Below are positions 1-24,000 of a DNA stretch of 33,716 bases, one piece after another; position 1 is the stretch's first letter; the number at the start of each line of letters is the position of its first letter. The notes under the pieces are model-generated. The model did not search any database. It was given only the letters and a program-made list of their open reading frames with translations, and had not been told where the DNA came from. A program made the position numbers and the translations under genes. The DNA is taken from positions 1 to 33,716 of the forward strand of contig JBDRMG010000053.1 of the NCBI GenBank assembly GCA_043812495.1, written 5' to 3'. The DNA is from Candidatus Omnitrophota bacterium. Lineage in GTDB: Bacteria > Omnitrophota > Gorgyraeia > Zapsychrales > JBDRMG01.

Positions 1-3000
1 TCGCTTGCTCACCATGAATCTCTGTGGAGATTCATGTTCCGTCCCGGATATCCAGATTCCCCGGATAACCTAGTCCCCGATTCCCGGATAACCAGATCAC
101 CGATTCTACATATACTATTACTCACCCTTCTCGCCGCGGCCATTGTTTTAGCATTGACAAATCCAAAAGCTCTAGAGCAAGGATTATTCTTCGGCGCTGG
201 CTTTTTGGGCGCCATAATCGAACCACGGCAGTTCTCTTTAGAACCATCGACCTCAATTTCTATAGATCCGCGCGCCTACCCTGATTCATCTACCGTCGGA
301 CAAGAATGGGAGATCATCAGGAAAATTGTTCCCCAATGGAAGAAAATACAAAAAGAAGTCGATCTGTTGTGGCGCGATCCGCGCACAGATATCAAGCTTG
401 CCTATTCGTATGTTGCAAAATACGTGTCCAATCAAAAACAAATCACGCTGTTAATTGACTACAACAACCGAGGCTATAAAGCAGCCAGAGATGTTCTTAT
501 GGTTATGATGACGCCCTTGGTCATATGTTGCGTTCTATCCATCAGGAGTCGTTATCCAGATTATGATTTGAACAGAGAGGATTTGATTCATGTCGGGCTG
601 TACGGTTCCTATCAAACATCAGACGCAGGGCTTGTTTATGCGTTAGGAAAATTAAAGGATTTTGATCCAAAATCAAGCACTCTGCAAACATTCCTTGCCA
701 AAATGATAAGATGGGCCATTATCCAGGAAGTCTATAAGAAGATTTTGCCAGTATTGGGCCGAGAGATTTCTATTCACGGGTCTTTATCTTCAAAGACAGG
801 AAGGGAAGATGATTCAGATATAAAGACTTTAGAAGATAAGCTTTGTTGTTTACCTCAAACGCAAACGCCTACGGAGTCGGATGTTAGTCAACCAGCAGAG
901 ACGACGACCGCTTTGCTTCATGCTTCCCGAAGACCAACTCGAGAAAAAACAATCGATAGTTTGCGGCAAAATATTCTTAAAAAGAATCCTGCTTTACAAG
1001 AAGCCATGAGCTCTATGGATAGAGAAGAAATAGAAAGGTTAATCCATGCCTTACGGATCAAGGAGGCTATCAAACAGAACCTTAGGGATTGTTTATTTAA
1101 CGACGAATTCAGGACAACGCGATTTGGGAAGGAAAAAAGAGCAGGAGTCAGCGCCTCTATCCATAGAGCTGCGGAGCGCCTCAATGATAAATTAAACCAA
1201 CTTTTTGCCAATATCTCTCGCGTACGGATTACGGGCGCGGTCGATATCCTCAGAGAAAAAATCCTTGGTCAATATCCTTCTTTGGAAAAAGCCATGGGGA
1301 CTATGGGCCAAAGTGAAATAAGAAGGTTAATACAGACCCTATCGATCGGGGAAGAATATAAAAAACTTCTCGCCGCTTGTCTGTTCCATCAGACACTTAG
1401 CGTCGCTGATCATGAAAGACTCACAAAACCAGCAATATGGCAGATGGTACAGGGAGCTGCGCGGTCTCTTAATGAAATATTAGCGCATCTTGAGTCAGCA
1501 AAAGATCAAAAATTATCGACCGCGAAAGTCGCCAGCTATACAACATTTCCGATGACTACGGGAATGATCATCCTCGCTGCTGTTGTGATCGGATTGGCCC
1601 TGGGCGTTCTTCTTGTGCCGGGAGTGCGGAAGTGGCTCGCCCGCCTCATTAACGCGCCGGATGATCAAGAGATAACAGAAACCAGAGCACAGAAACCAAA
1701 GAGGCTGCTGGCGCAAAGCTCATACTCATCCGTGGCTGGGGACTTGAGCTTTAATACTGCGCCAGCGGCCTATGAATTTAAAGACGAATTCCAAGGATCC
1801 CGGACCTCTCTTTGGCGCGAAGTCTTCAGCATCGGTTTGACTACTTTGTTGATATTGACACCGTTTATCGGAAATTGGAGTCAAGCCTATGCAAAACAAC
1901 CATGGTCTTCGGGGGTGGATCTTAATATCGCGCCTTTCAAAGACGGTATTTATATCGGTTTAACCATTCCCTTAGATAAAAATACGCAACAAATCGAGCG
2001 TCCCGCGCCTAAAGTCCACTTGGGATGGCAGGATGTGGCCTTAACTGTCGCAACCGCTGGCTTATTCTTGATGCTGCGCAATGAGGTGAAAGCAAAAGAT
2101 CAATTCAAACATATTTTCACCAAGCATACTTATTACGAAGATGGCACCATAAAGATGACTACAACCTTAGAGCATTCTCCAGGGCCAAATGATTTGCCAG
2201 CCTATCTTTATGCAGATGTTCTGAATGCCATAGCCTTGAGCACTTTCGGCACTGTTCGTTCACATGGGTTTAATATGCCCCACCTGATCCGCAATACGGA
2301 AACCGCCGCATTTTTAGGCACATCCAAATTTGGATTAAAATATGCCACGATCGAATATCGTGACATTGACGGTTTTTCCTGGTTAATGACCGTTGGCTAT
2401 GATGCGGCCAATTCCGGGATTAAAAATCTGCTGCGTTATGGGGAAGATCCGTTTTATGTGCTCGAAACGGACTTGTTGGTTCCTTTCGTATTTCGATATT
2501 ACCCCCAGGGTAATCGTCAGAACAGTTCGTGGGATTGGAAAGTATTACCGGGGACAGTTGCAGAACTCACTGAGAACATCATTCAGGGATATCGTTTTGA
2601 CTTCAAGAGCTCTCTCAAGGTCGCTGCCCCAGTTTTTGTCAACGACGATCCTCAAGGCATGCTGAGCCATCTAAATCATAATGTGATTACATTAAGTAGT
2701 GAAGATAATGTGATACTTTGGCATGAAAAGATTCATGCCTTCAATTTTCATGATGAGATAGGAGTCACTCTCGTTGGTGATGAGGAAATTTCATCGTTAC
2801 TTAACAAAGCACCTTATTTGGGAGACTTCGGAACTTACCGGTTTTTAATAGATCACATCAGCTGGCAGCACGCTTTCAACTATTATGTTTGGTGCTATTT
2901 TAATGACTGGGCTAATAAAATTCACGGCTGGAATGAACATGACCAACTGCTTGAAGAAAGAGAACCGATGTCTTGGACGAATGATATTCGATTTAATATG

Positions 3001-6000
3001 GAATTAGAACGCTTTTCAAGAGAATTTCCATTTCACCAACAGCAGAGTATTCCGCAGCAGGATCCGTACGTTAGTCCCGAGGCCAGGATTATCAGTTCAT
3101 GGGTGGCGCTCAATCTGATGCCCAATGTCCTGCAGTCTTTTGTGGTCTCAAGCGATCCGCAAAGACGCTTTCCTGCCGATACATCGGCCGTTAAAAGCGA
3201 CACAACAATCTCTGTATCATCTGAGGAGCTACATAGCCTCATTTTGCCTGTTGGCATAATTGGCATTCTGATTCTTGCCGGCCTTGTCATAGTGGCAGTG
3301 CACCGCAACTGGTTCGGACTGAAGGATGTGTTTGATAGGGTTAAAGAAAAGATTGCTGGTGTAGTCCCCCATCGTTTTGCCGTAGGCAAAACGGACATGG
3401 GGGATCCCGCTGATCGTTTTGCCGAAGGCAAAATGAGCGGGATCCAAACAGACAAGAGGCCGTTGGTACAGGGAAGTAGCCTTCAGTCATTCCCTCGACA
3501 AGCTCGGGACGTTGCAGCTATCAGCCATCAGCAATCACATCAGCAATCAGCTGAAAGCCGAAAGCTGATAGCTGATAGCTCAAATGCGCTAACGGCCCGT
3601 TCTTTATTGGTTCGACTCGCTTCGTCCTTCGGCAAGCTCAGGATTCAGCTCGCTCACCACTGGTTGAAGAGTCGAGCCACCCTGCCCGTCCCGCCGCTTC
3701 GCAGCGAAAACCGCGGGCCGGAGAGCGAGTTCCGCCGAAGGCGGGGGGATCCAGTAATGACAACACAATTTAAGGAGATTTACTTAATAGTTTCGAGGTG
3801 GGTTAAGCGATGGCCGTGGTCTTTGAGAGATACTTTTATTTCTGAGACATCAGTTTTCAGGACGGCGACATCAGACTTAAGGATCGCGACATCAGATTTC
3901 AAAACAGCAATATCTGCCTTCATTATTCGAATATCGGCCTGGATTATAAATATTTGTTCCTTCTGCTTGCCCAATTCTTCAAATACGATATCAAGCTTTT
4001 TCTTGACAACCGATAAATCATCGATAATCGTCTTGATATCCGAATGGATGTTCTCAAGCACGACCGCGAATTCCCTGTCCTTGGAGAATTCTTTGAAAGC
4101 CTTTGTTGTCTTGCTGCCTTTGCTTTTCATAGCGAGAGTTATTGTAGGCCGGCGAAAAGTTATTGTCAAGGCAATTTCTTCCAGTACTCATGGAGCAAAA
4201 GAGAATATTGCGCCAACGGCCTCTTTCTTTAAACCTTGCGGCATCAACTGGCATGCGGTTTTAGTAGCCGTCCTTGTGACAGTGTTGACATTCTTGCCCC
4301 TGCCAAGCCAAAGGATCAGAGCCTTTGCCGAGGCTTTTGCCCAATCTTCATTGAGTTACAGCTGGAAAATAATGGATATGTACCCGGACCTTTACCGTTC
4401 TCTCAGCGCTCAGGAAAGGGCCATTTTCGACTATTTGATCGCTCGATTTGATATCCAGCCGTATCAAAAAATTCGCGTCGAATTCTTTGCCAAATACGCG
4501 CAATATATAAATGCCCGCCTAAAATACGATTCCAATTTCAGGAGTGAAGATTTTCTCGAAGAGTATTTTTGGTGGAAAGTGCAAACCGATCCGGCGTATA
4601 CGGGTGTCCGGGGCGACATAAGCGAATTTTTCAAAGGGTCCAGCGGTCAGCAGAGCGCGTGGTCCCAACGTCATATTTATGACAATCCCGACCACGTGAC
4701 CGCAAGCAACTGGATTGTCAACGATCAAATTCATCCCAATACGCACCGCGTCAAAGATAACGCGGATGCGCAAAATCACACCGCTTCTCTGAAAACTCAA
4801 TGGCATGCCGTTATGTTCTTCAGCCGTACTGTGCTCGAAGGCGGGTCCCTCCAAGAACGGGACTTGGCGGCGTTGCAGCAAATCGTTAATGCCATGCTCG
4901 CGCTCCAAAATAGCGACGGCAGTTGGTTCGGCACTTACCGTTGGGATTTTAATATTTCTCCGACGGATGAAAAACCCACTGATGACATTTCCGGCATGGC
5001 CACAAGCCTCATTGTCTATTACATCATCACAGGCGATGACAGCGTTTTGGACGCGGCCATTGCGGCCAATGATTGGATCTTAGGGCAGCAAGACTTAAAT
5101 GACGGCAATGAAACGTTTAACGCCTTTGGCTGGGGCGAAATACAAACAGACCAGGGAAGCGAAAAGATCAAAATCTTCCCGACGGTCTCGACCGCCATGG
5201 CCATAAATTCCCTCTTTGCGGTCTCAAGGTTTTCCGGTGAAAACCACGACGGCGCGGATTCCCTCAAATACATGACGCCGATTCCCTATGCCGCTGTTAA
5301 GTTAGTCTCATTTACAGGTTTTTGGGACGCAAGACCTCTGCCGGACGGCCAGCATTTTATTCTCGGCATGGCCGATACGACCGGTACGCTCATGACCGGC
5401 ACCGATGGTTTAATCGGATCGCAGACCGATCCCATTCTTGTTCTGGATTATTTCTTTGGATCCGGATGGCTCCCGTATAATCCTCAATCGCGCAACGGTC
5501 TTCCCTGGCTTAAGGATTCTCTGGAGAATACTATTGATGTCAATGATGTGACTATCGTAGGCTATCCGCAGGACCCAAGCTCCCCGAGCGTCTGGGCCCA
5601 AGGAACAGCGCAGGTCGGTATTGCTAACGGTGTTGTGGGCAATACCGCGAATGCCGAATTTAACTACGCCCAGGTGCGTCTCCTCAAAGACCCCGTGACA
5701 GGCGGCATTTATTACAGCCGGGGCAGTCCTGAACAAGGCTGGCCGTGGAATTATCCTTATGCCGATGTTACGGGCACGATTCTTTGGATGCTTAACGGCA
5801 GCGGGGTCACGGTCCTCAATATTCTTAATGTGGATGTCATGACCCCGGCGGACGAAGGCGAAGAACCCCAAGCTATTCCGCAAGGCGTTCTGCTTGTCCG
5901 CGACCCGGCCCAGCATATCAATTATCCCAACCCGTTCAATGACGAAACCGTTATCCGTTATGAACTTTACCGCAGGAGTGATATGACGGTTCGCGTTTAC

Positions 6001-9000
6001 AATATGCTGGGGCAGCTTGTCGAAGAATTCGAGGAAGGCTTGCGCGAACGCGGCGTGCACGAAATCCGCTGGGACGCCGATCCCGCGGCGAACGGCGTGT
6101 ATCTTATTCAAATCGAAGCCAGAGACGACAAACTCAAAGTGATCGATACCGAAACCGGCAAAGCCGTGAAGCTCCACGCCGCCCTGTGGCCGTTGGGGAT
6201 GATGCCGTTGAGCGGGTTGGGCTGGACGATGCTGGGGCTTGGGGTGTTGGCGGTGGTTGCGGCGGGAATCGGGATTGCCTATTGCTTGTTCAATATTTCA
6301 AGAAAGGCGCGAGGGGTGACTATCTCAATACCTTCCAGCGGAGACAACGCGAGAATATCCTTATCGCCGGTCACAAGATATGACTTAGAGGCCAGCGCGC
6401 AGGAAAGAACCATATTGTCTTTGATATCTCGACATATCTTCACTTGGATACGAGGATTATTAAAACGAGCTTTTTCTTTAATCAAGGCAATGAGAAGCTC
6501 GCCGTCCGCGCTAGGAATGGCAAAAGATAGTTCCGGTTTTCTTACGGCAAAGACGAGTTCATTCAGGAGTTCATCAGATGTAACGAGCAAAAATCTTCCT
6601 TCAACGAAAGCGTTGATAATCGCCCGCGCTGATCCTTTCAATAGTCCGCTGATGAACACATTCGTGTCAATGACGGCTTCGAGCATAATATTCGTCTCTA
6701 GCCTGATGGACGATTTTGGTGATTTGCTTCTGAGAAAGGGGATTCTTCTTAAGGCGGGCGTCAATACGAGAGAGCAATTGCTTAAATCGCGCCTTCCAGG
6801 TGTCGCGCTCAAGCTCTTGAATCAGCTTGACTCTGTCTTTGGTGGGAAGTTCCAAAATAGCTTCCTTAAGCTGCTTGGAATTCAATTTGATTTTGATCAT
6901 GACTCAAGTATAGCGTTTTCAAATAAAAATGTCAACACCCCAACCCGGCAGGTATTGCAACCTGTCTTTGTTTACGCCGGCCTCGGGCCTGTTGGGATGA
7001 TGCCGGCTACTGCAATCGACTGGATCATATTGGGGATGAAGGTGTCGCTCGTAGTGGCTGCGATGCTTTTCGTTTATCAGGCCATCCTCTATGTGAGGCA
7101 TATCAAAAACGGCGGGACTTTCTTCCCAACATTTGTTTCTCCAAAGATGAAATACATTTCTCTCAAAAACCTTATAGGATTTTTTGTATCCCTTCCAAAG
7201 AATATTGTACCGCCTAGCTGGATTTTACCTCGCCATCCTATAGATGCCCCTGTATTGGGTGATCCGGGCATAGAAAAGCTGAAGCTAACAGAGATATATC
7301 AAAGAGACATTCTTGGGATGCGTGTGTTTTCTAGAGACATTGGGCCGAACCCAACTGCCTTTATTCGTAATGATTGGGCTGTTATAAGAGGCTATGGATG
7401 TGTTAGCAGGGATGGTTGGTGGGTAACAGAGTTACGTGATGGGGACACAATAAATCTTATTCGCTGGGGTTATTATCTTGCAAAGTTAAAGAAAGAATAT
7501 GGCGTAAAGAACGCGGCGATCATTAGTCACAATGCTCATAAAGGCGGCTTAGCAATTCCTGCCGGAATGAAAGTTGTGATAGTCTCTGGATATGTGTCAA
7601 TCTTTAATTCTTTTTGGATAGGATATGTCTATGGTCTATTTCAATTGATCGATAATAGTCGATCTGCAGAAAATCGCATCATTCATCCATCTCCATTTAC
7701 AGGTTGGGATAAGCTGTTATGGGCCATTCGCATTAGGATTATGTCCATGCAGAAATCCTTAAAGCGATCCACCAGACAAATGGAATCTGCTGAATCTAGA
7801 GTAAACATCTTTATCCCAATACCATTGATTGCAGCGGATGGAGCAATGCTGGGGATTGCGGCGTTGGTGTCGGTTGCGGCGGGAATCGGGATTGCCTATT
7901 GCTTGTTCAATATTTCAAGAAAGGCGTGCGGCGTGAATATTTCCACGCCTTTAAACGGGGACAGTGAAAGAAGTCCTTGCCTTCTCGATCTCTTGAGAAA
8001 TCTTTTTATTGGAAATCTTAAGTCTTTTACGGCGTTGATCGATGCTCGTCAGGATCGCGTCGAGGCGCTTAGCCCACGTTTCCTTTTGAAGCTTACGAAA
8101 CAGCTCAATTTTAAATCTTATGGGCATGCGATCAATGATCTTCTCAATTTCCTTCTCGTTAATATCCAAAGACATCTTAATCATAATTCAAATCCTCCTT
8201 GTTTTGATTTCAGTATAGCGTTTGCGGGTAAAGATGTCAATGTCCGGCATTATCAAATCGCCAAGTTGCCGGTCTATAGCTTCGCCGCCGTCGATCCGAT
8301 GGGGATGATGGGGATTGATTTGTCGGTTGAGGTTGTCGTCTTAGGCCTCGTTGGCGTCTTGTTGGTGGTTTTGGCAAGGATGATGGTAAAGGCGATAATG
8401 ACAAATGGCAAATATCAAATGTCCAATAAATTCCCAATGCCCAATGTTAAATGGGTTTTGATTCATTGGAAATTTGTCATTGGTCATTTATTTGATATTG
8501 GGAATTTTTCATTTGGCATTAAGAACGAAACCTTGTCTCTTCCAGCAACATCCTATTGCCTCTTCGACCCCACGGGCTTGAGCCTGATTCCGATGGTTCT
8601 TCCGCTCTTAGGCGCGATCATGAATCGGGCAGATGTTGAAAGCAAAAAAGAAGAAATCATTGCTCGATTTGTCGAATGGTGTAAAGAGAGCCATATTGTG
8701 CCAGATGCAAGTAATGTTGAGAATTACTTAAGTGCTTTTACGGGCGGGTTGGACGATATTGTCTTGGAGCTTGCGTTAGAAATCTGCGGACAAGATGAAG
8801 AATCAGCATTAGCCCTTGCTGAGCAGTTAAAAAGCGACCTTATTAAGGGAGCAACCGCAGCCATAGAGAGCGAAGAGTCCGCCGAAGACAAAGAAAAACA
8901 AGAGGCGCTGGAAAAGGAACAACAAGAAAAGTTTACTCTGACAAAAGAGTTTAAAGTCGCATTTAGCGATCTTGGCTCCAGCAATACGGATAAAGCGCAT

Positions 9001-12000
9001 CACGGAGAAGCAGTCATAAATCGATATATTCAAACACAAGGCAAGAGCGTCATTTTAAAATTAGTCGAAATACTCCAGGAATTAAAAAGTAAAAAAGATG
9101 GTCATGTTAAAAGAACATTTCATTCCGGAAGAGGACAAGACCTCAATAAGACAGCCGTGAGAAATCAGGTCAGAAGAATCAAACAACTGGTTTTGGACAC
9201 ATGCATCGCGTGGCTTGGCGAGGGCAATGAGGCCCAGGTGGCCATGGCCGAGCGCTTCATCCGTCAACTGGGAGGAAAAGAAAATTTAAAACATGCGCTT
9301 GGGGAGCTTGGAAGAAGAGAAAGAAAAGGGCGATTAAGCGAGAAAGAAGCGGCCCAAAAAGAAAATATCAATCGCATTCTCGCGGCTCTCGCCGTTATGC
9401 TCTTGGTCCTTATTCCGGCGGCGCTTATTTTCGGTCAATCCGCTTTCTACGCTCAAAACATGCTGCCTTTGGCCGCGATGGTCCTGGCCGGAGTTCTACA
9501 AAATTGCCAGGAAAAAGAAGACCCCGGTTTGTTAGATATCGTTACCACCAGGCAGTTGCTGCTTCGACAATTAGAGAAAGCGCTCGAAAATCCCGAGGGT
9601 ACAATAGCCACATTCATCCAGATTACAAGTGAACTCATGAGACTGGGCCTGAAAGAAAAATTAATTGTCTTAAGCGCGGCTGTTCAAAAGGAAGTTGGAA
9701 GACTTAAGGACGTTGTTGAACAAATCAAAGCCGGCAAAGACGCGGCTGACTTGGCTTCCACGCTCCAAAGCATAAGCCAAAATCTGGATACGGCCGGCCT
9801 CGATGACATCATTCAAGCGGTTGATAAGATACCGCGGATTGAAAGAAACTTATGGCATGACGTGAAAAATGCTCTAGGGTTCATCACGGGCGGTCTCGGC
9901 CTTCTCCTGGCCCTGGAGGGCCAGAAGCAAATCGACAAAGCGCAGGAATTTCTGGATTTGATTGTGAAGGGAATCCATGACGCCGCGGACATCATCGGGG
10001 GCGATGCCCTTTATGAAGGAGAAACAGAGGATGACACGACCATCGGACTGTCCGCCGTGTTCGGCCTGCCTTTAAGCTGTGAGATAGCGCTTTTAGCCGG
10101 ATTGGCGGTTGGCCTTGCGCTGGCCGTGCGGTGGTTAAGAAATATTGTTTTCAGCCGCACAAACCTCCCTTATCGAGGTCATAACTTTGTTGTTTTGGGC
10201 TATGCGTTCGGGGTGCTGCTGGTCGCGGCCGGGCTTTTTATGGCCTTGGTCGCGTCAGTTGAGTTGATACGAGCCGGCCAGATCGTTTTGGGTATCGTGG
10301 GAATTTTGTCAGGCTCTATCAATATCGCCATGGCCTCGGCGCTCGCAAGACTTTTTGGCATGTATCATTATGAAAACAAAAAAGAAGCCGCTGTTTCCCG
10401 CCAAAAGAAAATATTCAACCGAATCCTGCCTTTGACTGCCGGCATCACCATCTTGATCGGTCTTATGAATATCAGCTCTCTGACGACCGTTGGAATTATT
10501 TTCGGAATTCTGACCGTGATCGCGGGCAGTGCGGTCATGATTCTTCAGCCGCACCGGTTTGACCGGGCAGAGAAGGCCATGGCGCAGAAAACAGCTAATC
10601 AAACCCTCAGACATCTCGAGAATGGAGATCTCCATAAATGGGACCTTTGGGTCAAAATTCTCGAAAAGCTTCTTCGCTATGGCGGTCCTTTGGCCTGCGG
10701 ATGGAAAGTTTTCAGGAAAGACGGCACCATGAAAAAAGGCGTTCAGAAAGAAGCTCTGAAATTCCTCAAAAAAGCAGATATTATCCGCATCACCGAGGCA
10801 CCGGAAGAGTTCAGCCACATACCGCAAAATATTTTCCAGAAATTGCAACAAAAAGGCTGGCTCATTGTTTGTACGGATTCTCCTTATCTTTTGAACAAGA
10901 ACGGAAAACAATTCCTCTTTGCTTTAACGCTTCATGAAAAAACAGGCTACCTGAATGAAGGGAAATATATCACCCTCGGCTTACTTGATCAAATGCGGGC
11001 GTTAGGCGGGCTTGAGGAACTTAATGATCTCATCGCTTTCGAGAATAAAAACCAGGAACAAAAGAAGGAAGATGCTGGCGAGTCCGAAGTATTAGCCCGG
11101 AAAATACTCGATGTTCTCAGAATCCGGCAAAAACAGAAAATGACGGTTTTGATCCTTTGCGATTACAATTTGGAGCGCTCCGTTATGGCCAGAGCTCTTA
11201 TCGATGCGAGCGCGGACGAAGGTCTGCTGGATAGAATCGACATCATTACGGCCGGGATTTCTTTATACGAAAACTATCTCGACAGAGGCGCCGAGAGGGA
11301 GCTTCTCAGAAGATTGATCCAGGACCAACCAATCCTCTTTGGCCATATCCCTGTGGCCGCGCAAAGCCGTCAAATCAGACAAGCCGGTCTAATCTTGGTC
11401 ATGACGGAAGAACAAAGAGCCTTTCTGATATCAAAATATCCCGAGATTGAAAAGAAAATATTCCTGCTTCTTGGGGATAAGGATTTACATGCCACTCAAG
11501 ATGACCGCAAGATTATTAATGGCAAGACCTACCAGCCTTTAAGGCGAACTATCGAAAATCATTTGGACAGTATTCTTGACCGCATCGAATCAGCCGCGGC
11601 GGATTACGCGGGGGTTATCCGCAAAGAAGACGATTCGCTTAATAAAACCACTGAAGCAGAAAATGGTCCAATGGCCGGGTCCGGGCAGGGGCAAAAAATG
11701 CCATTGCCAACAAGCTCTCAAGAATTCCAATCACCCGCCGGAAGACTTTTGGATGCGTTCAAACTCCATGAAGCTAAAATTATTGAACAATCCGAGAATA
11801 ATATCGTGGAGGGCTTAACCATTTACACAATTGAAACCCCTGAGAGAATCGACAGGACCGAGGCGCCGCAAGGATTGGAGATTTTGGATAATGAATTGGC
11901 TGCGGTCAGACGCTTCGATCTTCTGTATAACGATAACAGTGAGCTTATTGCGATCTTCCCTGTGCTTGAAAGGAAAGCAGAAGGTGCCCGATACATTGAT

Positions 12001-15000
12001 TTTTGTGATTATTATGTTTCGTATGTCTTATTAAGAAGAGAAGGCAAAAAAGAAGACATCATCAGAGGCTGGCAGGAATTTGCAGCCCAAAGAAACAAAA
12101 ATAGAGATCTAGTTGATCAGTACCAAAAGGCCAAATCAATCGGTAAGACAATCGAGAGGGTCTGGGGAGAAAAAGAAAAACAAACTCCTTTTATATACAT
12201 TGAGTTGCCTGAAGAAAGCATTGTTCCATCTATGTATTCTTTTGATCCCAACATTTTCTTGGGGATTGATAAAGAAAGCAAGATCAAAAAGAAGATTGAC
12301 CGCATGTTAACGCAGAATCCTGATACGGAGAGCGTCATCCTGATCGCTCCTCCAACGGTCTTCTCGCCCGCTTTCCATAAAAATCGATCTGCGGACGATG
12401 ATTTTGTTATTCACATTATGCAAGAAGTCAAGAAATTTAAGTTTGCCAAAGATGACAATATTCTCGATTCGGCCACGGGCACGGGTTATCTTCTCTGGGT
12501 GGCGTGGGTTATGGCTGGAAAAAGAAAAGACTTGAACTATTATGCCCTGGATATCAATCCTTTGGCCGCAGCCAGTGCCCTTATTAATTTGCAAGACATT
12601 GCTGGAATTCCTGTGCAAGTCAAAGCACATAACAATGTCATTTCCAAAGAAGGCACGCCTGCATTTACAGAGAAACACAAAGACAAGATTAAGCCGGTTG
12701 TCTTCCAATTCATTATTTCCAACAGCCCTTCGTATGAAAAGAAAGAATTGGATGAACCGCAAGACAATGCCATGCACATAAGGCTTGAGCAATATCATGA
12801 CGGCGGTCAGGCGGGACGGAACTATCTGTCGCGATTTGCCGAAGGCCTGCGCATCATTCAGGATTCAAAACGAGGATTGGCTGTTACTTGGAATGAAATC
12901 CCAGAATTAGGTCGCGATCCTGTAGGAGATATCCTCGCTCAAGCCGGATTGCATTATGAAAAAAACAAAGGCGGAATCTTCACTGACTATTGGAACCATC
13001 CGACGTGTCTCATCAGAAATCCGCGGCGAAAAGCGTTAGAAGTTATCCCCCAAGACGCTTCTGTCAAAGGCAAACCCAACGCAGAATTATCCATCTTCAT
13101 CTTTAGCCAAGAATTTATGATTCCGGCATTAATTATGCTAAGCGCTGCAGTATTTTTGTATATCAATAGCTCCTCAAAATCATCTTCAGAAGAAACAGTC
13201 AGATATTTTAGCACTGGCGAAGGCCAAGATCATAAAAACGCTTTTGAGAATATGCGCGAGGCCATAGAGCTTGCTCTATCGATAAAGGATAAAGACGACG
13301 TATTGAGCGGAATTGTCGAAATATTAACGTCCGCTGTTTATCATCGCAAAAGTAAACCTGTGGCCCAAACCATTGAATTCCTTATTGCTAATTTCCAGAT
13401 GCCCCCTCACTTAAAGTCCGAACTTTATCAGGCCTTATTATATGCATTTGAGTATTTCGATAATGAACACGCAGCTTGCGCGTTAGCCAATCTGATGACC
13501 CGTTTACCGACGCCTGGTGAACTAGATCCACTAAAGGTAAACGGTCTCCGGCTATTTAAATCGAAGGCTCATCAAGGAAATCGCCTTGCGGCCCAGACAT
13601 TAGCGGAATTAGCTCCTTATTTACTAAAACTCATGACTCATCCAATTCCTGATGATTTAAGAAAAGAGGCTGTTAACGCATTAATGAAATTGCCTCTTGG
13701 AATTAGCGGTCCAGAACTCAATTTGACTGAAGGAGATTATCCTCTTGTCAGAATAGAAGATGTATTAAGCAAGGTTGACTCCGGCCATCCTCGCCATGCC
13801 AGATTCATTTCACGGCATTTAGGCCTTTCAATGGAATTGGCTTATTCAAGGCAGCTAGTTTATGATCTAGACGATGATAATCTTTTAGTCTTCAAGATAT
13901 CCGACAAAAATGGGAGTCCTTTAAGTTTATTGCGGGAGGTGTTTTGGATGAAACATCTGAAAACACTTAAGCAAAATGGAGAATTCGAAGACGTAAGATT
14001 TGAGATACCTGAGCCTTTAGAGTTTTCAGATTCTCATGTTATTAAACTGCAAGATATTCCCATCGATGTTCCTCGCGGGCTAAAGCTTCATCCCAAACAG
14101 TACGCGATCTGCTTTGTGGTTCATAAAGACTATTTTAGATATCCCAATGAAACAGATCCTGAACTAAGACTTAATGAGGAGCAGGCCCTAGAGGTTTATC
14201 CTAGAAATGCTTTTCTCTTAGGCCGCCTTGCCTCTTTAGGTATCCTCACCACGGATGTTATTGCTTTATTTCACAGCAGGATGCAGGCCTATAAGACAGA
14301 TCGCGATGGTGGCATATACCATGTCTGGAAAAGAGGACGACAAGATCGCTGGCTATATTCTTGCGATTGTCCAAATTTTGGCGTAAGCGGCGGAAGAGAC
14401 TTTGAACACTACATATCGTGGCCGACAGATCAGCCGCCAGCAGGTTACATGAAAGGTCAATTAGGATTATGCCATCTTATGGAAATACACTTTTTAAGTC
14501 TGCTTGACGCAAGCGGTAGTTACTTTAGAAATAAGGATAGAACCAGAGTAGGTGTAGGTGAAAATTCCAGGCCCGTTGATGCTCGAGACTTATTCGATGG
14601 GGAGTTATTTAGGAAAATGGTTGAGAAGATCTTTCTGAATTATTATCGGGGTTTTACAAGAGAAGCTTGCGCAAATGAACTCCCCGTGAATTTTGATTTT
14701 CTTATCAAGCGAATGATTGATGAAATGGGCGTGGATAAATATATGACCGAAGTGTTAAGAAAAGATATCCAAAATCGGATGTCTGATGAAGAATTTAGAG
14801 AAGCACTTGTCCGTGGAGGTTTCTCTAAGGAGGAGGCATCTGCAAAAAGAAAAGGGGAGAGTCCTGTCGCGATTATGACCGGTCCGCACCTAGGTGAGTT
14901 TAATCAAGCAACTTCTCTTCCTGAGATGTTCGATGCCATAGAGGCTATGGTGGTCTTGTGCGTACAGGGTTTGTATAGAAAAGAAAACGATCCAAGTCAA

Positions 15001-18000
15001 CCTCATTCCGATTTTGTCGATAACTTACCCGTTGGATATTTCGTCTCTGGGAAACCGCAAGCCAATCCGAACCTCATAATCGAAAGAGAAGAAACACTTT
15101 ATAAGCGTTGGATTCAAGGAACCGCGTTAGAACAATTTGTAAGAAGTATAACAATTAAGCAGAATAGCGAATCAATTCTCGAAGGGACCTTGGTAACAGA
15201 TTCCTACGAGATTCCTTTTGAGATTCAGGTCCAAGACGGAATCCTCACCGGGCCGGCCGCGGCGATTGAAGATAACGAGGATCGCCGCGCATACTCCAAG
15301 GAACTTGTTCGCGTCATTCTCAAGTGGCTTAAAGACGAAGGATTCGTCCAAGGCCGGTTTTTTGTCAGCAATAAACATGCTGTTTCTTTTCTTGAGCAGA
15401 CATTGATGTTTTGGGCTGGCTCAGAAGAACAATCTTTTCGAACGGATACAAAGGGCGCGATTTATACGGTCATAACCTATGACCTTACAAAATTGGATCT
15501 TGATGCGCAATTAAGCGTCCGGGATACGTTACCAAACAGGAACGCATCAAGCGATTCAAATGATATAGGCGCGCTCTTCTGGGATGCAGCGTCTTTCTTA
15601 ATTTTTGTCTTGGCCATGATGATATTTATCGCATTGATTTCCAGGGTCATAAAAATCGCTTATCGCCGCTTTGTTATCCTTAGGGGCATTCAAAAAAGCT
15701 TCCCCGTTCTTTATCCCAAAGACATGATCGGTGCCGTTGAATCCGTCCAAAGAGTCAAAGACCCTTCTGTTTCCCGGCTTGACAAAGTCGGACACGCCCT
15801 TGCCCTGTACCAAATGTCCTATCGCCAGTTTAAAGTCGTGAGAGACGCCCTTTCCGGGCATATCCATCTCTTTGGTCTCATGACGCTTTCCGCGTACAGT
15901 CATTTCGGACATAACCAAAAGATCTTTGGAAAACTTATGCACGATGAGATTTTCCATCTAGTCGGAGGAGTTTATAATTTATTACCCTATAAGTTGACGA
16001 CTTTGGTTAAAGGCCCAAGCGGCATGTATCTCAATGAGAATTTCTACGGCATGCCTTACCTCTTCGACCCTTACTGCCGAAATAGGACCAGCGCTTTTGC
16101 CCGCAGAGAAAACGAACGCTTCAGGATCGATTTTAGAGCCGTTGCCGATATTGCGGCCGATCAAGGTTTCACGCTCACCTTTGAGATTGTTCGATACAAT
16201 GGGCACCAAGAAGATGCAAATGGTTCACCCATTCAGATCACAAGCGATGGCCGCTATGTGATCGTCTATTATCGCGTGTCCTCACCCTTAGAAGAAGCGA
16301 CTTATCGTGTCGCCTATCGCACGAAGGTCAATGAGCTTCAGGAAAGGCTCGATGGGACGCAAGAAGCAGACGAAAGACTTGCTCTCTACTTTCGGCTGGC
16401 CAGGCTCTATTTCGATCTAAAAAATTATAGTAAAGTCGTGGACTTGGTCGATAGGACAATCGCAGGACTGACGCGCGTGGATGCGTTTAGGCATGGGCCC
16501 TTAAAACGTAAAATGGTCGTCTACTATTCCTGTTTAAGAGAACTTTTCCAAGCTAAAGACTTTGACGAAGCAAAGACGTTGGATCATCTATCCGAGATCA
16601 GAGAATCATTTGCCTTTGAACTTGTTGCTTTTGAGACATCACCGCTGAAACCAGAAATCGAAAAAGCAATCAACACAATCGACCGGCTTACGGTCCTTGT
16701 CGAGAGTGGAGGAACAAAAACCATGGAACGACCCGCCGATCTTAGAGGTATGCTCAATAACGTTATCGCTGTCAGTAATCAGATATTTCATCAATCTCCA
16801 AGTCGGCAGGACCATAAACAAAGAATCAGTGAACTTTGCGCCTATATCAATACGATTGAACCAGGGACAGACGAATTTGAGCTTCTCAAGCATGTGCTTT
16901 GGAAGATGACAAATCTAGGCTTTATTGTGACGGACGATTTATTTGCGATGCAAAGAATCCTTAAGACAGTCCTTTTAAACAAACGACTGATGGCGTATCT
17001 CTATTCCCATTTGCGGGAGCTTGAGAAAAACGTAACCACAAGTGCGCAATTCCGGTCCTCTCTCAGGGCAGCCACAAAAGAAGCCGGGGCCCATCAGAGA
17101 CGCGCCGATGCTATTGAAGATTACTCCATTAGCGGTTTAGGCCGGGAAGCCGTGGAGAAAGAGATTAAAGACCTGAAGGGCGGCAAAGACTTGGAGGGCG
17201 CCATAGATTTTCTGATTAAAGACGGTCTTATTCTTGAGCCGGACCGTTATGCGCTACTCACCGAAGGTGTCGAAAGAAGCGATGTCAGGTTTGCCGCGAT
17301 TTACAGGGCTGTCGAGATTGCCGCAAAGAATCTCAACGTCAGCATAGACGTGGTGATAAAACTCTTGCGTATGCGCGGAGTGTATTTTGTCATGGCGCCC
17401 GACGGCTGGGGCATCGGCGAATCGATCGCGCTTTATCGCAATCAGCCCGTGATCATCATGGATAATAATCGCAACGAAAGGAACATTGCTCACGAAATCG
17501 AATCCGTGCTCACGGGTTTTGACCATCAAGCCATTCTTCTTATCGACCGGGGGCAAGTGAATAAAACGCTTCGGGAATTGATCGATCAAAGAATGGAGGA
17601 CGCGCTTTTAAGAGGCATTTTCCCTGAGATCCAGGATTACAACTCAAAAGGCAGCGAAGGCCTCATCGAGGCCGGGCCGGTGGATATCGATGCGCTGGTC
17701 AATCAAATCTTGTCCGTTTTACGCAAAAAACGAATAACACATGAAGGCACGAAAGAAGAGAAATTAATTTCTGAAATTATACGCTTTACCAAGAAAATTG
17801 AGCCCTGGTTTATTCGCTTCATTCGCGAAAAGATTCACCCAGGCAACCTGAGAATTTGCCGCAAGACCGCGTTTGCTTTGGCGCGCATCTTGTCAGATCA
17901 GTTTGGCCTGCCCATATTTGGTTATGATTCAATCAGACTGGAAGTTGTAAGTGGAATATTAACCAATCCAATCAATGGTCATTATTTTGTTTCACTCATT

Positions 18001-21000
18001 GTCGATAACAAAAAAGCTCTGTTTCTTGACGGATCCCGTTGGTTTGACGATGATTTCATTTTAATCCATGAGTACGATGATGCCATAAAGCAGCTTGATA
18101 TTTTTGAATGCTCTGAGGCCAATGTTAGTCAAACTGCTTCCGGCCACACGTTATTATTGGCTATGTTAGCCGCAGGATATCGAGAGAGAAAGAAATTGAT
18201 GGCAGGACAGCTTGAATTGGATAAAGAAACAAGCGATTTCGTTGATCGTATCCGACAAGAGTTTTCCAAACAGAAGTCCCGCCTTGGAATCATAGCATCG
18301 CCATTATCCATTCTCGGCCTTCTCGGCCTCTTCGCAGCGGCTTTGATCATCATCCCTCACGCCCTGGCCGCCGGCTTCTTGGGCCAGGTGTCGATGTTAG
18401 CGTTGGTACCGGTGTTGGGAAAGATAGGAGAAAACCTTGAATCCAATAGAAAGATGGAGAGGCTAGTTATAGGATTGATAGAAGCATTAAAATTTATCCG
18501 TTTAGATGAGAATGATATTGAAATTATGATTGCATTTTCTGGGGAAATTCACGCTGAGGATGCTGTCAACAAATTCTTAAAAGACCAGGATTTCAGAGAA
18601 GAAGTTCTTTCATCCATGGTTATCGCTTTACCGAATAATTTGCAAAAGTTGTGGGATACGAGTGAATCCCTTTCTTTAGAGAAACACCAACTTATGTTTG
18701 TCATTAATCGGGTTGCCCAGCGCTTGGGACAAACAACGATTAATATCGTAAGTCAAGAAGATAATATTCAACATCAGTTGAAAATTCCTCTTGATGTAGG
18801 CGTTGTAAGAAGATCTATTCGGTATTTTGCATTGACTTCTAGTTTGGATACAGCATTAAAAGATCTGCTACGTAGAACTTTTACGCAATCCACCGGTTTC
18901 GAATTTAGATTACGCAACCTTGCCTTGGATGAACGCGCAAAGGAATTTTTGACTGCATTTCTGCAAACCAGAGACGGTTCTCAAGCAAAAACCGGAGAGG
19001 CCTTTAGTTATTTGCTGAAATTGACAAAAGCGGGTCAGACGCCTAATTTTGAAGAGATCCTGAGACAAAGAAGAGAAAGGTTGCATCAAATAATAGAAGA
19101 AATCGAGGCCTATGAGAATATGATGGCCGGAACAAAAGAAGACGGTTCTTCCATTGATTATGAACGCGACGTGATTATGGGTGGCTTGCGGCCCCCTCTT
19201 GGCAATAGGGAAGATACTCTCAAAGAAATGAATGTAATTAATGACATTCTTGGGTTAGATGAGAATTCTGTCCCTGCTCTTTTTGACGAAAGAATATTCC
19301 ACATTGGAAGAATTCTTGCTCCGCGGCATAAGCGTATCCGAAGCATTTCTGATTATTTAGAGATGTATTTTCGCATCTATCCCATCGACAAGCACCAAGA
19401 GGAGATTTCCGAAATAGCCCTAGTTGTCCTGAATAAGCTCTATATGTTTCTCTCGGAATTTACGAAACTTCTTAGGGGATTGGAACAGATTCTTGATGAC
19501 GAGAAGGTTATCTTCCGGGAAGAAATTTTATTTTTACGTATACCTAAAATTATGGTCATGAAGGAAAAAATCATTGATGCGTATAAGGATGCACAAGAGC
19601 TGTTAAGCAGGCAAGAATATGCAAAAGCCATAAGATCCGCCTCAGCAATCTTTGCAAATGTCGATAGCGAATTATCTAATAATACATATCCCACGCTTAT
19701 TAATCGTCAGTTTACCTCTATCCTGGCTAAGAGTGCCCGCGATGAGAAAGTTCAAAGAGTCTTATCAAGACTCAACGAAATCGATTTTGACAATGCTCGC
19801 TTAAACGCTTTTATGGTTGGTGTCACTACGGAGGGGGCTGCTTATTCATTGTTGAAATATCCCTATATACGTAGCTCGGATAATGTCATTGGCTTCGGAA
19901 TGGAAATTGACCCTTGGGAATCTATCAAGCAGGCTTTTTTGATTTATGAGAATATTGATATTTCTGGTATTGAGCGAGAGTGTCCCAGAGAACCTCTTAC
20001 AACTAATATTCTTGTTTTCGGCTCACGGGTAGATTTGCTTATTACCGAACTTCTCAAAAATGCCATTGTATATGCAAAATTTAATGAAAATACGCGTTCC
20101 TTGACCGGAAAGATTCGCGAAGACCATAGAGAGACAAAAGAAGGATTTCTTTATACAATTGAAGACAACAACAATGGTATCCTCCCGAGAAATTTAGAGA
20201 AAATCTTCTATGTTTGTGAATCAACTAGGGGGGATCTTTATAAGAAATTTGCAGGAGGAGGCGTTGGCCTTGCCGAAGTGAAAAACATCGTGGATATGCA
20301 CAATGGAAGCATCCAGGTTATAAGTAGAGTCCGTGGCGAAATGGCGTATGAGATTAACTATAATAACGGAAAGTTTTCAAAGGTCAAATCCGTAAATCAG
20401 AAAAACGAACAAGCACATTTAAGGTATCCAACCGGCACCAAATTCATTATAACTCTACCTTATCCTATGATTTATGTTAATCTTGTTGCTCCACCTTTTG
20501 AGGAAAGGGGGGAGAATAATGAATTACCGCTTACAAAGCTCGACTTTAGTGTCAATAAAGACAAAGAAAACTTATCGCAGAGTGGATACCTTGAATTATT
20601 TACAGGTGCCGTTGATTCTTCTCTTGCGATGGGATTGGCGGCGGCTGCGGTGCTGGCAGTAGTCACGGCCACAGGGTTGATTTTAAGAAAGAACGAAAAA
20701 GTGAATGGGGCGAGGGCGCCGGGAGTCAGTCAATTTATAAGTAATCAAATTAAGCCGCTGTGGCCAAAAGTCAGAAATGCGCTTGCTCGACCTCTTACCG
20801 TGGCTGGTGGAAGAGCAAGTTTGGCCACAGCGGCTTTTGTATTATCCGTGGTCCCGACGCTCCGACGTTCCGTCGAAGATCCGGATCCCGTCTTCCACAA
20901 TTCAATATCAGAAAATTTCTGGACTGCTCCGATACCACGAAATAATGAAAAGAATGTCGGGGGTCGGAGTCCCGACCGACAACGAAGTTGGAGCGTCGGA

Positions 21001-24000
21001 AGTGGGGCATCACGATTGCTTCCTAGCGGGATTTTTGCCTCCAATCAGCTTCAATTAAATAGGACAAAGTCGATTATATCGTTCCAGCACAGCCAAGCTC
21101 ACGCCTTCTTCCTTCCTTTACTTTCTCTTATGAACAGTGAAACCACCACAGGATGGCTTATGCCCATAGTGACTACTTTGGTCGTTATTTTCATTGTCGA
21201 GAAAATATTTAGGCTCAAAGCACGAAAGATACTTAATGCGTCGGAGTTAACCGAAGAGCAGATTCCTCAACAACTGGCGAAATGGCATTTTATTGCCGCG
21301 TTTTCTCTCGCACTTCTGGGAACTCTCAGCCTCAACTTAGAGATGCTATGGAACGCGCTCGCAAATACCCAAACCGCTGAACCGTTAAGCTTGATTATAA
21401 ATATACTCCTCATTTTCACGGCGATGTTTATTATATCTCTGTTTATGTTCAGAGGAGCTATACGCAGAGAAGTAGAAGCTTCACGAAAGGAAAAGGAACA
21501 AGAGACGGATGGTAGTAGTGAGACCCTCAAGCCGGAAGACCTCGTCGAATTCGCCGCAGAACATGGCTTCATCAAAATGCTGGCTGAAATTGACGGGAAA
21601 ACGCCGCAACAGATAGCATCTCTCTTTGTCTCTTTCAACGAAGTGAATTCGCCCGGATTCAACCTTATAAAAATGCCGCTGCGCTCAATGGTATTATTTA
21701 TCAACAACAACCCATCTCTTTGTGAAAGAGTTTCCAAAATGAAAGTCACCCGGCGGCATGGAAAGATGAACCGTGTGGAATTCCTTTTTAACCCTGCCCA
21801 AGGTCCCTATGCGCACCTTAGCATAGAGAGAAACGGAGATTCTTCCCAATGGTCCTGGTCTTATCGATTGGGACGCAAATTCACATTGTTCTGCTTTGTG
21901 GGAATACGGCGAATTATTAGCATCGTAAGGGTGGAGAGAATGTTGACAGAAGAAGATTATCTGTTGTCCGAGGGCGGCCTAAAACCAACGCCGCAAGACA
22001 GCTCCGACACGGCCGGTTCCTCAAGCCAATCATCCGAGCTGCTTTCAATCTTCCATGGGCCTCATTTTGTTTCTCTCCTAAGCGGAATTATTTTGATCAT
22101 CCTAACCGGACTACTTTTAAGATACGCAAAGCAGGTGCGGGCAGAGGATATCAAGTGTCAAGTTTCAAGTGTCACGTGTCAAGGCAATCCCTATCCCCTC
22201 AACGCTGAATTTAAAGATCCTCAAAGACAGAAGGTACAAGATACAAGAAATCCGTCAAATTCTTCGAATTTGACGAGACCTCGGCAATTTGTTGGAAACA
22301 AATTGCCGGGCAAGCTCCAAACAATACTCAAGAATCAAATTTCAATATTCAAACGTTTGGGATTTGGAAATTGGAATTTGGATATTGTTTGGAATTTGTT
22401 ACTTGGTGCTTGGAAATTCAAATCTCCTTTGTCCCCAATACCTCAATCTCCCAATTTCCTAGTCCCGGGTCGCCCCATCGCCGGATCACCCCATCAAACT
22501 CGCTCTACGCTATCCGCTATCCTTGAGCGTTTAGCGTTTAGCGTAGAGCGTAGAGTTGATAAAGACCTATACGCTAACCGCTATACGCTATCCGCTATTC
22601 CTCTTACCTCCGCGGCCCTCATCCGTCTTCGCCCCGCCTTCGGCGGGGCTACGCCGGATTTCACCCAACAGACTATGAAGACGGATGAACCCGGTGAAGC
22701 TAAACGTGAAGTCCCGCCGTCTTTTGGCGGGATGAAACAATTTAGCGAAGACGGGTCATATCCAGGCACCACGCCTGCGTGCCGTAATGTCGCACTTCGG
22801 CGTGCAGGCATGGGCTTTAACCAGTGGGGCTTCATCTCCCTCGCTGCCGCGACGGTCCTCTTCTTTATCATGCCTCATAGTACGGCGCTAACTTCTGACG
22901 CATTTCTTTTAGGTAAGATTCAGAATGTACCGGTAGACAATCTTTCTCTTTTAGGGCGGACAGGGAAAAACCTAAAGCAGCTTGATGAATTCTTCCACGG
23001 TGAGATTGGCGTTGCGGATCAAAGACCGCAAGGTACCCTTGGCGAGGATTTTGTGGTTGGGAATAGACAAAACGCTACACATACCTTCCTTTTCCATGAT
23101 GATATGAGAGCCGTAACGCGCGATAATCCATCCGTCCTTACGAAAGGCCTTGACAGCCTCTTGGCCAGAAATATCAGAAGGAATCTTGGGCATTTATATC
23201 GAAACCTCATAAAGAAGTTCTTCTTTATGCTTGGCTTTTTCTCTTTCAGCGCGCCTATTGAGCACCTCAAGACAGCCTCTCATCGCGTCCTTGATGTTTT
23301 CCTTAACTTCCTTAAGAGTTCGTCCTTGACTAACGCAGCCAGGAATGGCGGGACATTCAGCAACGTACCAACCGTCCTCGTCTTGCTTTATGATAGTCTT
23401 ATATTTCATCTTGCGCTACCTCCTTATTTTCACTTCGCACTCAAAGATAGCACGAACGCACATGTAAGTCAAGCCATAGTCGCGCCATTAGGCGCAATGA
23501 GTGAAAACACAATCATCGACAGTCATCTATTGGCCTTTGCCCTTTTGACAGGGGTCATCTTCCTTGCGCTTGTGGCGGCGCTTTTAAGATACAGTAAGCA
23601 GATTCGGGCACAGAATGGCATTGACCATCAGACATTGGTCACAAGTTCCGCCACAAACTGTGGCGAGACCTCGCCGCTTTACGGCGGGCACAGGGCACAA
23701 GTCACAAGTAGAACCCTAACCTCTAACCCCCATTTCCTAATCTCTAAAATAACAAACCCGCATTGGATTCATTGGATTAGAGGATATCCGGGGATCCGGG
23801 GATCCGGGACTAGGATATCAGGATATCAGGAGATTGGGGACGTAAATGATTTGTCCCCGATTTCCCAATCGCCGGATTCCCTAGTCCCGAGTCACCCGAT
23901 CTCCAAATCACCTCACCAAACTCGCTCTACGCTATCCGCTAAACGCTATACGCTCATAACCTCCGCGGCCCTCGTCCTCATCGCTGCCGCGGCCATTTTT

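Follow-up and report, generated by a model that had tools for sequence, protein, structure and literature searches.

Four minus-strand units within one giant plus-strand frame

The window analysed here (33,716 nucleotides (nt), the entire contig C53 of a 1.94-Mb genome bin of 66 contigs from a Candidatus Omnitrophota bacterium) is occupied over its whole length by one plus-strand open reading frame (ORF), a fragment of a multi-domain, multi-transmembrane giant gene of the 'Archaeovorin'-like type of Omnitrophota, within which four small minus-strand units lie, three of them related to toxin-antitoxin (TA) systems. Frame +1 contained 0 stops over the 33,716 nt, and 410-718 stops were counted in each of the other five frames. 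An earlier inspection of the letters and their ORFs (hereafter the sequence-only reading) had described the four units as complete minus-strand genes that leave the plus frame unbroken, and the ORFs together with the Pfam and NCBIfam matches bore this out, with the boundaries listed below (the other contigs of the bin are likewise denoted by C and a number).

1..33714, plus strand, giant ORF fragment of 11,238 codons, open at both ends
3780..4130, minus strand, gene for a coiled-coil protein of 116 amino acids (aa), with the ATG at 4130 (a TTG start extends the longest ORF to 4169)
4141..4169, minus strand, promoter match of the coiled-coil gene, TTGACA-17-TACAAT, 11/12 to sigma-70, with the ATG 10 nt after the -10 box
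6279..6686, minus strand, PIN-domain toxin (VapC-like) of cassette A, 135 aa, register 2, with its codons offset from those of the giant frame
6667..6900, minus strand, VapB15-like antitoxin of cassette A, 77 aa, register 0, overlapping the start of the PIN gene by 20 nt
6907..6935, minus strand, promoter match of cassette A, TTGACA-17-TATACT, 11/12, with the ATG 6 nt after the -10 box
7899..7973, minus strand, PIN C-terminal remnant of 25 residues, 72% by tblastn over PIN residues 112-136
7951..8184, minus strand, orphan VapB15-like antitoxin of cassette B, 77 aa, matching NF047401 (E 2.6e-8) in an end-to-end alignment below the 80-bit cut-off
8212..8240, minus strand, promoter match of cassette B, TTGACA-17-TATACT, 11/12, 27 nt from the ATG and within repeat D4
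22972..23193, minus strand, HicA toxin, 73 aa, register 0, matching HicA_toxin PF07927 (E 4.9e-14, profile positions 1-58 of 58, above the cut-off)
23194..23409, minus strand, HicB-like antitoxin, 71 aa, register 0, its stop directly abutting the HicA ATG in the same frame
23444..23472, minus strand, promoter-like site upstream of hicB, TTGACT-17-TATCTT with TG, 9/12, no better than in shuffled sequences

Cassette A has a VapBC-like layout, with the antitoxin gene just upstream of the toxin gene and one shared promoter match upstream of both. The toxin matched PIN_3 (E 1.7e-18, profile positions 2-115 of 115, above the Pfam cut-off) and TIGR00305 (E 7e-23, 81 bits against a cut-off of 29), respectively. 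The antitoxin was aligned with the VapB15 model NF047401 over positions 1-66 of 66 (E 7e-12) at 45 bits, below the cut-off of 80; it matched no Pfam family, and no antitoxin relatives were found by a word-based protein homologue search.

The antitoxin of cassette B had been described beforehand as an orphan forming a unit of its own. The gene is indeed present at 7951-8184, and it is not a separate kind of unit, being the counterpart of cassette A minus 312 nt of the PIN gene. Cassette A measures 707 nt and cassette B 395 nt, a difference of 312 nt or 104 codons, and they have in common the repeats D1 (6229-6355 and 7846-7972, 83%) and D4 (6900-6935 and 8205-8240). The repeats at both ends, the difference of 104 whole codons and the PIN remnant together indicate that the toxin of cassette B was deleted without shifting the giant frame. 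The antitoxin of cassette B is 48.6% identical to the antitoxin on C65.

In the HicA translation a GSH sequence is visible, which we take to be the conserved motif of HicA. HicB matched HicB_lk_antitox PF15919 (E 6.2e-7, above the Pfam cut-off) over profile positions 1-57 of 123, corresponding to the N-terminal HicB fold. Full-length HicB proteins carry a C-terminal DNA-binding domain for autoregulation; no such second domain was found by Pfam in the present protein, which with 71 aa ends soon after the matched part. The coiled-coil protein had no significant Pfam or NCBIfam family. Its paralogue at C65:24181-24498, also antisense in a giant frame, is 40.5% identical by tblastn and 44% by a separate search.

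Ten further contigs of the genome are likewise open, the longest being C65 (75.3 kb), and the giant frames together amount to 271.5 kb, or 14% of the genome. Between 3400 and 8700 the three best sigma-70 matches (11/12) are all on the minus strand, each directly upstream of a unit. Across the 271.5 kb of giant frames, matches of at least 11/12 numbered 0 in sense and 8 in antisense, 5 of the 8 preceding nested genes that have homologues; the expectation per strand from the rest of the genome was about 9, giving a probability of 1.3e-4 for 0 matches in sense. The paralogue of cassette A on C65 has identical promoter hexamers. With its ATG 6 nt from the -10 box, the mRNA of cassette A would be nearly leaderless.

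Stop avoidance and reading register

The plus-frame codons under the four units (about 613 as the sum of the unit spans) contained 0 stops. According to the frequency in the same antisense registers of free, that is non-nested, PIN_3 and HicA homologues (0.031-0.042 stops per codon), about 19-26 stops would be expected there. The two antitoxins and hicBA are antisense to the giant frame codon for codon, so that a giant-frame stop at these places would require TTA, CTA or TCA in the small gene. Together they account for 3.05% of the codons in 716 ordinary long ORFs of the genome and for 0 in HicA, HicB and both antitoxins. The coiled-coil gene lies in register 2 and is not codon-aligned with the giant frame.

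The same was found when nested homologues were compared with free ones in the register of the giant frame. All of the nested PIN_3 genes were stop-free (13/13), against 1 of 34 free homologues with a mean of 4.3 stops, and all of the nested HicA genes were stop-free (17/17), against 3 of 43 free homologues with a mean of 3.0 stops. The register is fixed within each family, the nested PIN_3 genes being in register 2 (14/14) and the nested HicA genes in the codon-aligned register 0 (18/18), and both registers are about equally stop-poor in free homologues.

Recurrence of nesting in related genomes

Homologous loci were collected from 60 genomes of the same order, with 47 of 48 PIN_3 rows (the second fragment of one broken gene was dropped) and 61 of 65 HicA rows (four weak matches were not fetched). 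A locus was recorded as nested when the other-strand frame was open across the whole fetched locus (1.8-3.4 kb). Nesting in antisense was found for 12/47 PIN_3 and 16/61 HicA loci, spread over 17 other genomes, and nesting in sense for 0/108 loci of both families. Two or three nested units 8-25 kb apart were present on several of the relatives' contigs, as giant genes would give. The coiled-coil gene was nested antisense in all three matches of the relatives and in the C65 copy (4/4). Promoter matches of at least 10/12 were recorded for 15/35 and 9/42 of the free loci and for 8/13 and 9/18 of the nested loci.

As a control, ParE was examined at the 29 best-scoring of the relatives' 105 matching loci and was nested at none of them (0/29, Fisher P = 0.0012), which makes nesting a property of particular lineages and not of TA genes generally. 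The sequence-only reading had held that routine breakage of the plus frame at homologous cassettes would speak against it. The frame was open at all 28 nested loci, a result that is partly circular because the nested class is defined by openness.

In the phylogenetic trees the nested state was clustered. It requires 4 changes on the HicA tree against a mean of 14.2 in shuffled data, and 5 changes on the PIN_3 tree against a mean of 11.3, and in both cases 0 of 500 shuffles gave so low a number. The HicA tree contains three well-supported all-nested clades of 5 members, each spanning several taxonomic families, and the PIN protein of the window groups with PIN_3 proteins that are all nested (6 in the group). 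The HicA of the window is a nested singleton among free HicA proteins, with 49% identity to the most identical row, and its isolated position indicates that nesting arose several times.

Giant-frame similarity between nested loci is mostly confined to the cassette, with one pair aligning over 622 residues. No domain was common to the flanks of the relatives' nested cassettes, 19/30 loci being without any family, and the flank domains that were found are unrelated (glycosyltransferase, HATPase_c, HD/GAF, M23 peptidase, sigma-70 r2 and FlgD_ig). Apart from the window, C65 and one relative, no nested cassette had a C-terminal domain of the type IX secretion system (T9SS) type upstream. The occurrence of cassettes in unrelated surroundings favours movement over fixed inheritance.

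Selection on the two strands

The ratio of non-synonymous to synonymous differences (pN/pS) was estimated for both strands of the same DNA; as pS reached 0.72-0.77, near saturation, all of these ratios are rough. In the three nested HicA clades, pN/pS was 0.24-0.37 for the toxin frame and 0.93-0.98 for the giant frame. In nine free HicA clades, it was 0.12-0.35 for the toxin frame and 0.71-1.31 for the same antisense register. The PIN genes behaved like HicA, and the values for nested toxin frames were 0.24-0.55 overall. The expectation of the sequence-only reading that the minus-strand toxin proteins are under purifying selection was thereby borne out, within the roughness just given. Because the giant-frame values lie within the range of the free register, the giant frame itself shows no constraint on its protein apart from the absence of stops. 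Three nested toxins have internal stops while the giant frame above them stays intact, and 29 of 32 are without an internal stop.

Census of the genome

Inside the giant frames 471 antisense ORFs of at least 60 aa were found, of which 450 were scanned with Pfam at E up to 1e-4; 18 shorter ORFs and 3 crossing the borders of fetched pieces were left unscanned. Matches to a family were obtained for 13 of the 450, namely 11 of TA type and 2 representing pieces of an IS630-type transposase, and the other 437 matched nothing. The matches by family are as follows.

PIN, 4: C53, C65 and C42 twice (6837-7292 and 9125-9601)
HicA, 1: C53
HicB, 2: C53 and C20
DUF433 and DUF5615, 1 each: C19 (7660-8375)
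DUF2283, 1: C63 (11838-12050)
IS630-type transposase ORFs, 2: C20

In six-frame searches of the whole genome, all matches to PIN/PIN_3 (4 loci) and both matches to HicA were antisense in giant-frame contigs, one ParE was present on an ordinary contig, and MazF, Phd/YefM and HepT were not found. Seven of the eight toxin-family matches (including DUF5615) lie within 14% of the DNA (binomial P = 7e-6, some of the matches being paralogues and not independent).

The IS630-type transposase (HTH_33 and DDE_3) is located antisense at C20:8421-9635 as two ORFs split at 8970/8984 and has a single genomic copy. The C20 giant frame is open through the entire transposase stretch, which is also covered, in the third frame of the plus strand, by a 404-aa ORF of no family. 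As Pfam controls, ten other long ORFs antisense in the window were scanned and matched no family. The long antisense ORFs (255, 244, 200 aa and others in the window; 404 aa on C20) have no family and look like by-products of low stop density in two antisense registers.

Linkers, repeats and domains of the giant frame

The features of the giant frame around the units, with transmembrane (TM) helices taken from a Kyte-Doolittle scan, are as follows.

5923..6132, plus strand, Por_Secre_tail (T9SS C-terminal sorting domain), aa 1975-2044, Pfam 1.3e-7, about 150 nt before cassette A
6208..6297, plus strand, TM helix before cassette A
7021-7077, 7801-7917, 8320-8376, 3238-3294, 4252-4308, 22048-22104 and 23530-23586, plus strand, helices after cassette A and bracketing the other units

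Every unit sits between two hydrophobic helices of the giant protein, and the scan gave 38 hydrophobic windows, some of them overlapping, between the domains of the giant frame. Repeats in the flanks (6229-6355 and 7846-7972; 22114-22519 and 23581-23941) encode TM helices and hairpin elements. Two diverged direct copies of a segment for a TM helix and linker (22050-22625 and 23517-23975, up to 83%) stand on either side of hicBA, and a TM-helix repeat with a perfectly conserved core of about 55 nt precedes both cassette A (~6255-6309) and cassette B (~7872-7926). The duplicating unit may be helix-cassette-helix.

Palindromic or hairpin repeats adjoin the units at 8396-8525, 22302-22410, 23776-23913 and 3600-3730. 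The first three are about 85-140 nt long, match themselves in both orientations and have copies on the ordinary contigs C31, C47, C33, C22, C29, C10, C66 and C15. At 14 of 15 repeat copies on non-giant contigs no covering frame is open for more than 400 nt, and the giant frames continue through the copies on their own contigs; the linkers resemble intergenic DNA from which stops have been kept out. The short GC-rich, hairpin-forming stretches 3600-3660 and 3678-3729, downstream of the coiled-coil gene, have CTTCG motifs and are 88-93% identical to sites on C47, C41, C29, C56, C10, C21 and C16. Downstream of hicA there is a GC-rich stretch (22581-22871) with negative GC skew and no Rfam or Pfam match, the 126-nt core of which (22647-22772) is 90% identical to C63:13939-14061, also within a giant frame.

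Six Pfam families were found in-frame in the window, and the domain chain runs through Por_Secre_tail, LMWPc, HATPase_c, Glyco_hydro_77 (1e-80) and FBPase_glpX (weak). The Por_Secre_tail domain normally forms the very end of a protein, and its copy before cassette A looks like the fossil end of a once-separate gene. A complete 4-alpha-glucanotransferase (GH77) is present at 27892-29850 (profile positions 2-460 of 465, E 1e-80), in frame as though an entire cytoplasmic enzyme gene had been fused in. A divergent SecA DEAD helicase domain, which occurs in most full-length Archaeovorin-type genes according to the available part of the original report (10.1101/2023.11.21.568195), is not among the six families and was not found by Pfam in the giant frame of the window, the remaining contigs not having been scanned in that frame.

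Two same-strand giant frames overlap by 95-167 nt in different frames on C20 (~33576-33670) and C63 (~17002-17168), where the cause may be a frameshift, an error of sequencing or a genuine gene boundary, and no gene lies at the break. In giant-frame translation, two places on C42 are about 96% identical to positions 1-78 of the window; the assembly was probably broken in a repeat at the window start, and C42 with its two PIN cassettes may be the adjoining contig. The window contains no tRNA or tmRNA and no Rfam family at gathering score, and Rfam at E up to 1 gave, for 22000-24200, just look-alikes of microRNA precursors on long hairpins. For 3500-8500 no RNA run was found, and contigs from the one DNA run (share 0.09) came as six short pieces with no joints, none of them bridging a cassette.

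Interpretation and alternatives

The reading favoured here, with moderate confidence, is that the nested units are autonomous selfish TA cassettes belonging to lineages adapted to living in the linkers of giant genes, with giant genes apparently serving as hosts to a guild of small selfish genes. The sequence-only reading was right about the anatomy of the locus. It had proposed addiction locks or antisense regulators and, as a fallback, 'selfish insertions tolerated only when frame-preserving', and it is the fallback that the asymmetry of pN/pS, the decay of toxins and the non-homologous flanks favour.

On this selfish-cassette reading the giant gene is a chain of enzyme-like and surface domains parted by membrane helices and linkers, and four linkers would hold autonomous small operons on the opposite strand with sigma-70-type promoters of their own, encoding a VapB15-like antitoxin with a PIN RNase, a toxin-less copy of it, HicB with a HicA mRNA-interferase, and the coiled-coil protein, respectively. 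The units are probably transcribed and translated and the toxins probably active. The small genes would be 'frame-transparent', one antisense register being written stop-free so that the giant gene can be read through; the antitoxins and HicAB would reach this by avoiding TTA, CTA and TCA codons, and the PIN and coiled-coil genes by avoiding certain two-codon combinations. Selection would act on the amino acids of the small proteins and, in the giant frame, solely on keeping stops out, and the giant protein would carry a meaningless loop between two membrane helices at each unit. The antisense orientation is presumably compulsory, since with a sense copy the giant transcript would acquire stops, ribosome sites or start signals, and a terminator. 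The cassettes probably move between giant-gene linkers by recombination, and the frame may be kept open because uninterrupted translation is needed; as a suggestion, ribosomes coupled to the polymerase could avoid premature termination of the very long transcript.

Several points weigh against the selfish-cassette reading. Passive tolerance alone predicts that TA genes are depleted where 10-25 stops must be absent, and enrichment is seen, which fits targeting or host benefit better; nested clades with intact toxins across family-level divergence fit host benefit equally. The first entry of a multi-stop cassette into an essential open frame is left unexplained. No orthologous empty site showing an insertion was found in the 60 relatives with the module beside cassette A (4510-6204) as query, which gave distant matches (26-47% identity) in 3 genomes and a paralogue on C65. 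The bin is 90% complete in 66 contigs, and TA genes may be missing from the census. The nested class of the relatives means 1.8-3.4 kb of open frame, a giant gene not being established each time; the ParE control covers the 29 best of 105 loci; the P values overstate the significance because related genomes are not independent samples; and the near-saturation of pS makes the selection ratios rough.

An alternative to which we assign a limited probability is that of addiction locks, in which the host keeps the nested TA modules since they penalise deletion or recombination in a costly, repeat-containing giant gene. The concentration of 7/8 toxin-family matches in 14% of the DNA would suit such locks, as would nested-only clades keeping intact toxins under purifying selection across several taxonomic families, conserved promoters in paralogous cassettes with an adjoining module just 28-29% identical, and direct repeats at the cassette flanks, which as a class favour deletion; the regulation of integron arrays by TA cassettes has also been published (PMC13108822, in its available part). 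Against such locks, the units are clustered and not spread along the gene, with four within 20 kb and none by Pfam on C11 and C45 (~40 kb). Toxin loss is tolerated (cassette B and the three broken nested toxins), and the coiled-coil gene, the transposase and the repeats occupy the same niche. ParE, which is equally able to 'lock', is nested at 0/29 loci, which points to adapted cassette lineages and not to host recruitment. Purifying selection on the proteins and the retention of full-length family matches argue against the units as antisense regulators, in which transcription from the unit promoters against the giant gene would tune the expression of the giant transcript or divide it into segments, the encoded proteins being secondary. 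Free homologues have promoter matches of at least 10/12 about as often as nested ones, and this explanation is given a very low probability even with the antisense-only occurrence of strong promoter matches in giant frames (8 against 0), the very short leaders (6-27 nt) and the position of the units in linkers between modules on its side.

The units might instead be engulfed relics, ordinary genes once lying between same-strand genes that were swallowed at a fusion and are now decaying without function. The remains of a gene end in front of cassette A suggest the engulfment of some units during the fusion of adjacent genes, and the Por_Secre_tail domain just before this cassette with a TM helix after it, the complete GH77 enzyme in frame, the linker repeats that are intergenic elsewhere and the one cassette minus its toxin agree with such a course. 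Relics fixed in place and decaying would, in contrast, hardly have left 29/32 nested toxins without an internal stop, toxin-frame pN/pS at 0.24-0.55 (with pS near saturation), promoters kept, and homologous cassettes in non-homologous flanks. As an account of the present units engulfment is considered highly improbable; as the origin of the first nested state it may have played a part. An artefact of mis-assembly, chimeric binning or chance is hardly credible: the data come from a metagenome bin and a contig ends in repeats (positions 1-78 of the window and C42, ~96%), whereas the 11,238 codons contain 0 stops against 410-718 in the other frames, the same nesting recurs at 28 loci of 17 other genomes, always in the register specific to the family, and giant ORFs of this phylum have been published as transcribed and translated (10.1101/2023.11.21.568195, in its available part).

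A wider proposal, which is speculative and judged rather unlikely, joins the selfish-cassette reading with host benefit. The giant genes of Omnitrophota would be a dedicated habitat for a co-evolved 'frame-transparent' guild (nested-only VapBC-like, HicAB, DUF433/DUF5615 and DUF2283 modules, the coiled-coil gene, the IS630-type element and hairpin repeats), the TA members of which would repay the host as internal addiction modules protecting a 270-kb repeat-containing gene from deletion, and the frame would be stop-free because unbroken ribosome traffic lets the long transcript finish.

Standard gene callers cannot report an opposite-strand gene inside another gene, and annotations of giant genes therefore hide real TA systems; nearly all TA systems found in this genome are hidden inside giant genes. 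For antisense overlapping coding, which is contested in bacteria, the dozens of loci, the known families and the opposite selection signatures on the two strands make a strong comparative case. Stretches of giant proteins that are by-products selected solely for the absence of stops would bear on the modelling of such proteins and on the need for an unbroken frame.

Comparison with known systems

A literature search gave no paper joining Omnitrophota, antisense and toxin-antitoxin and, among the papers listed, none describing a nested opposite-strand TA layout, supplements not being covered. New in the present analysis are the TA content, the census, the antisense-only rule, the fixed register, the nested-only clades, the contrast with ParE and the two-strand selection test. 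The Archaeovorin genes (West-Roberts et al., 10.1101/2023.11.21.568195; also 10.64898/2026.06.07.730766) resemble the giant frames described here in their great length, their many TM helices and a small genome (giant frames being 14% of the present one), and, in the available part of the reports, in embedded enzymes of sugar metabolism, fructose-1,6-bisphosphatase there and GH77 with a weak GlpX in the window. The Omnitrophota giant ORFs are stated in the available part of the first report to be transcribed on one mRNA and detected by proteomics (10.1101/2023.11.21.568195). Unlike the present case, no opposite-strand genes inside a giant frame are described in the texts of these papers, supplements aside, and the text of the first is also silent on mobile elements and transposases.

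With the type II VapBC and HicAB systems the nested units share antitoxin-first two-gene operons whose stop and start codons overlap or abut, PIN and HicA domains of full length, a promoter immediately ahead of the antitoxin gene and the typical decay to an orphan antitoxin. They differ in lying wholly within an opposite-strand frame with one antisense register stop-free, in the short HicB (profile positions 1-57 of 123) and in VapB15-like antitoxins that score below the family cut-off. The embedded antisense overlapping genes of Escherichia coli O157:H7 are alike in that a small gene lies fully antisense within a longer annotated gene. There, an old gene was overprinted by a novel ORF of unknown family, the reality of which is disputed; here, in contrast, the small genes belong to known families with relatives and signs of selection, and it is the long frame that is the by-product.

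In ambigrammatic narnaviruses the codons of both frames are aligned, and those that would give stops in the complement are avoided by the forward gene. According to the available parts of the reports (PMC8316113; 10.1101/761890; PMC8155312), their reverse ORF seems to have no functional protein product, yet its translation matters, and the likeness lies in a reverse-strand frame held open over a real gene, HicAB and the antitoxins of the window being codon-aligned and stop-avoiding as well. The present case differs in that the genome is cellular DNA, the 'meaningless' frame is part of a giant gene that has real domains in other places, the overlap is confined to local islands of 0.3-0.7 kb and is not genome-wide, and the PIN and coiled-coil genes are non-aligned.

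Sedentary chromosomal integrons are comparable in another respect, since in the available part of the source (PMC13108822) a stabilising or regulatory role is proposed for promoter-bearing TA modules within a very long, one-directional, recombination-prone array. An integron-array reading of the locus was considered and given up, no search aimed at attC sites or an integrase having been made. What corresponds to the array here is one translated frame and not a row of promoterless cassettes, and the comparison raises the question whether TA modules stabilise very large recombination-prone genes in the way proposed for integron arrays.

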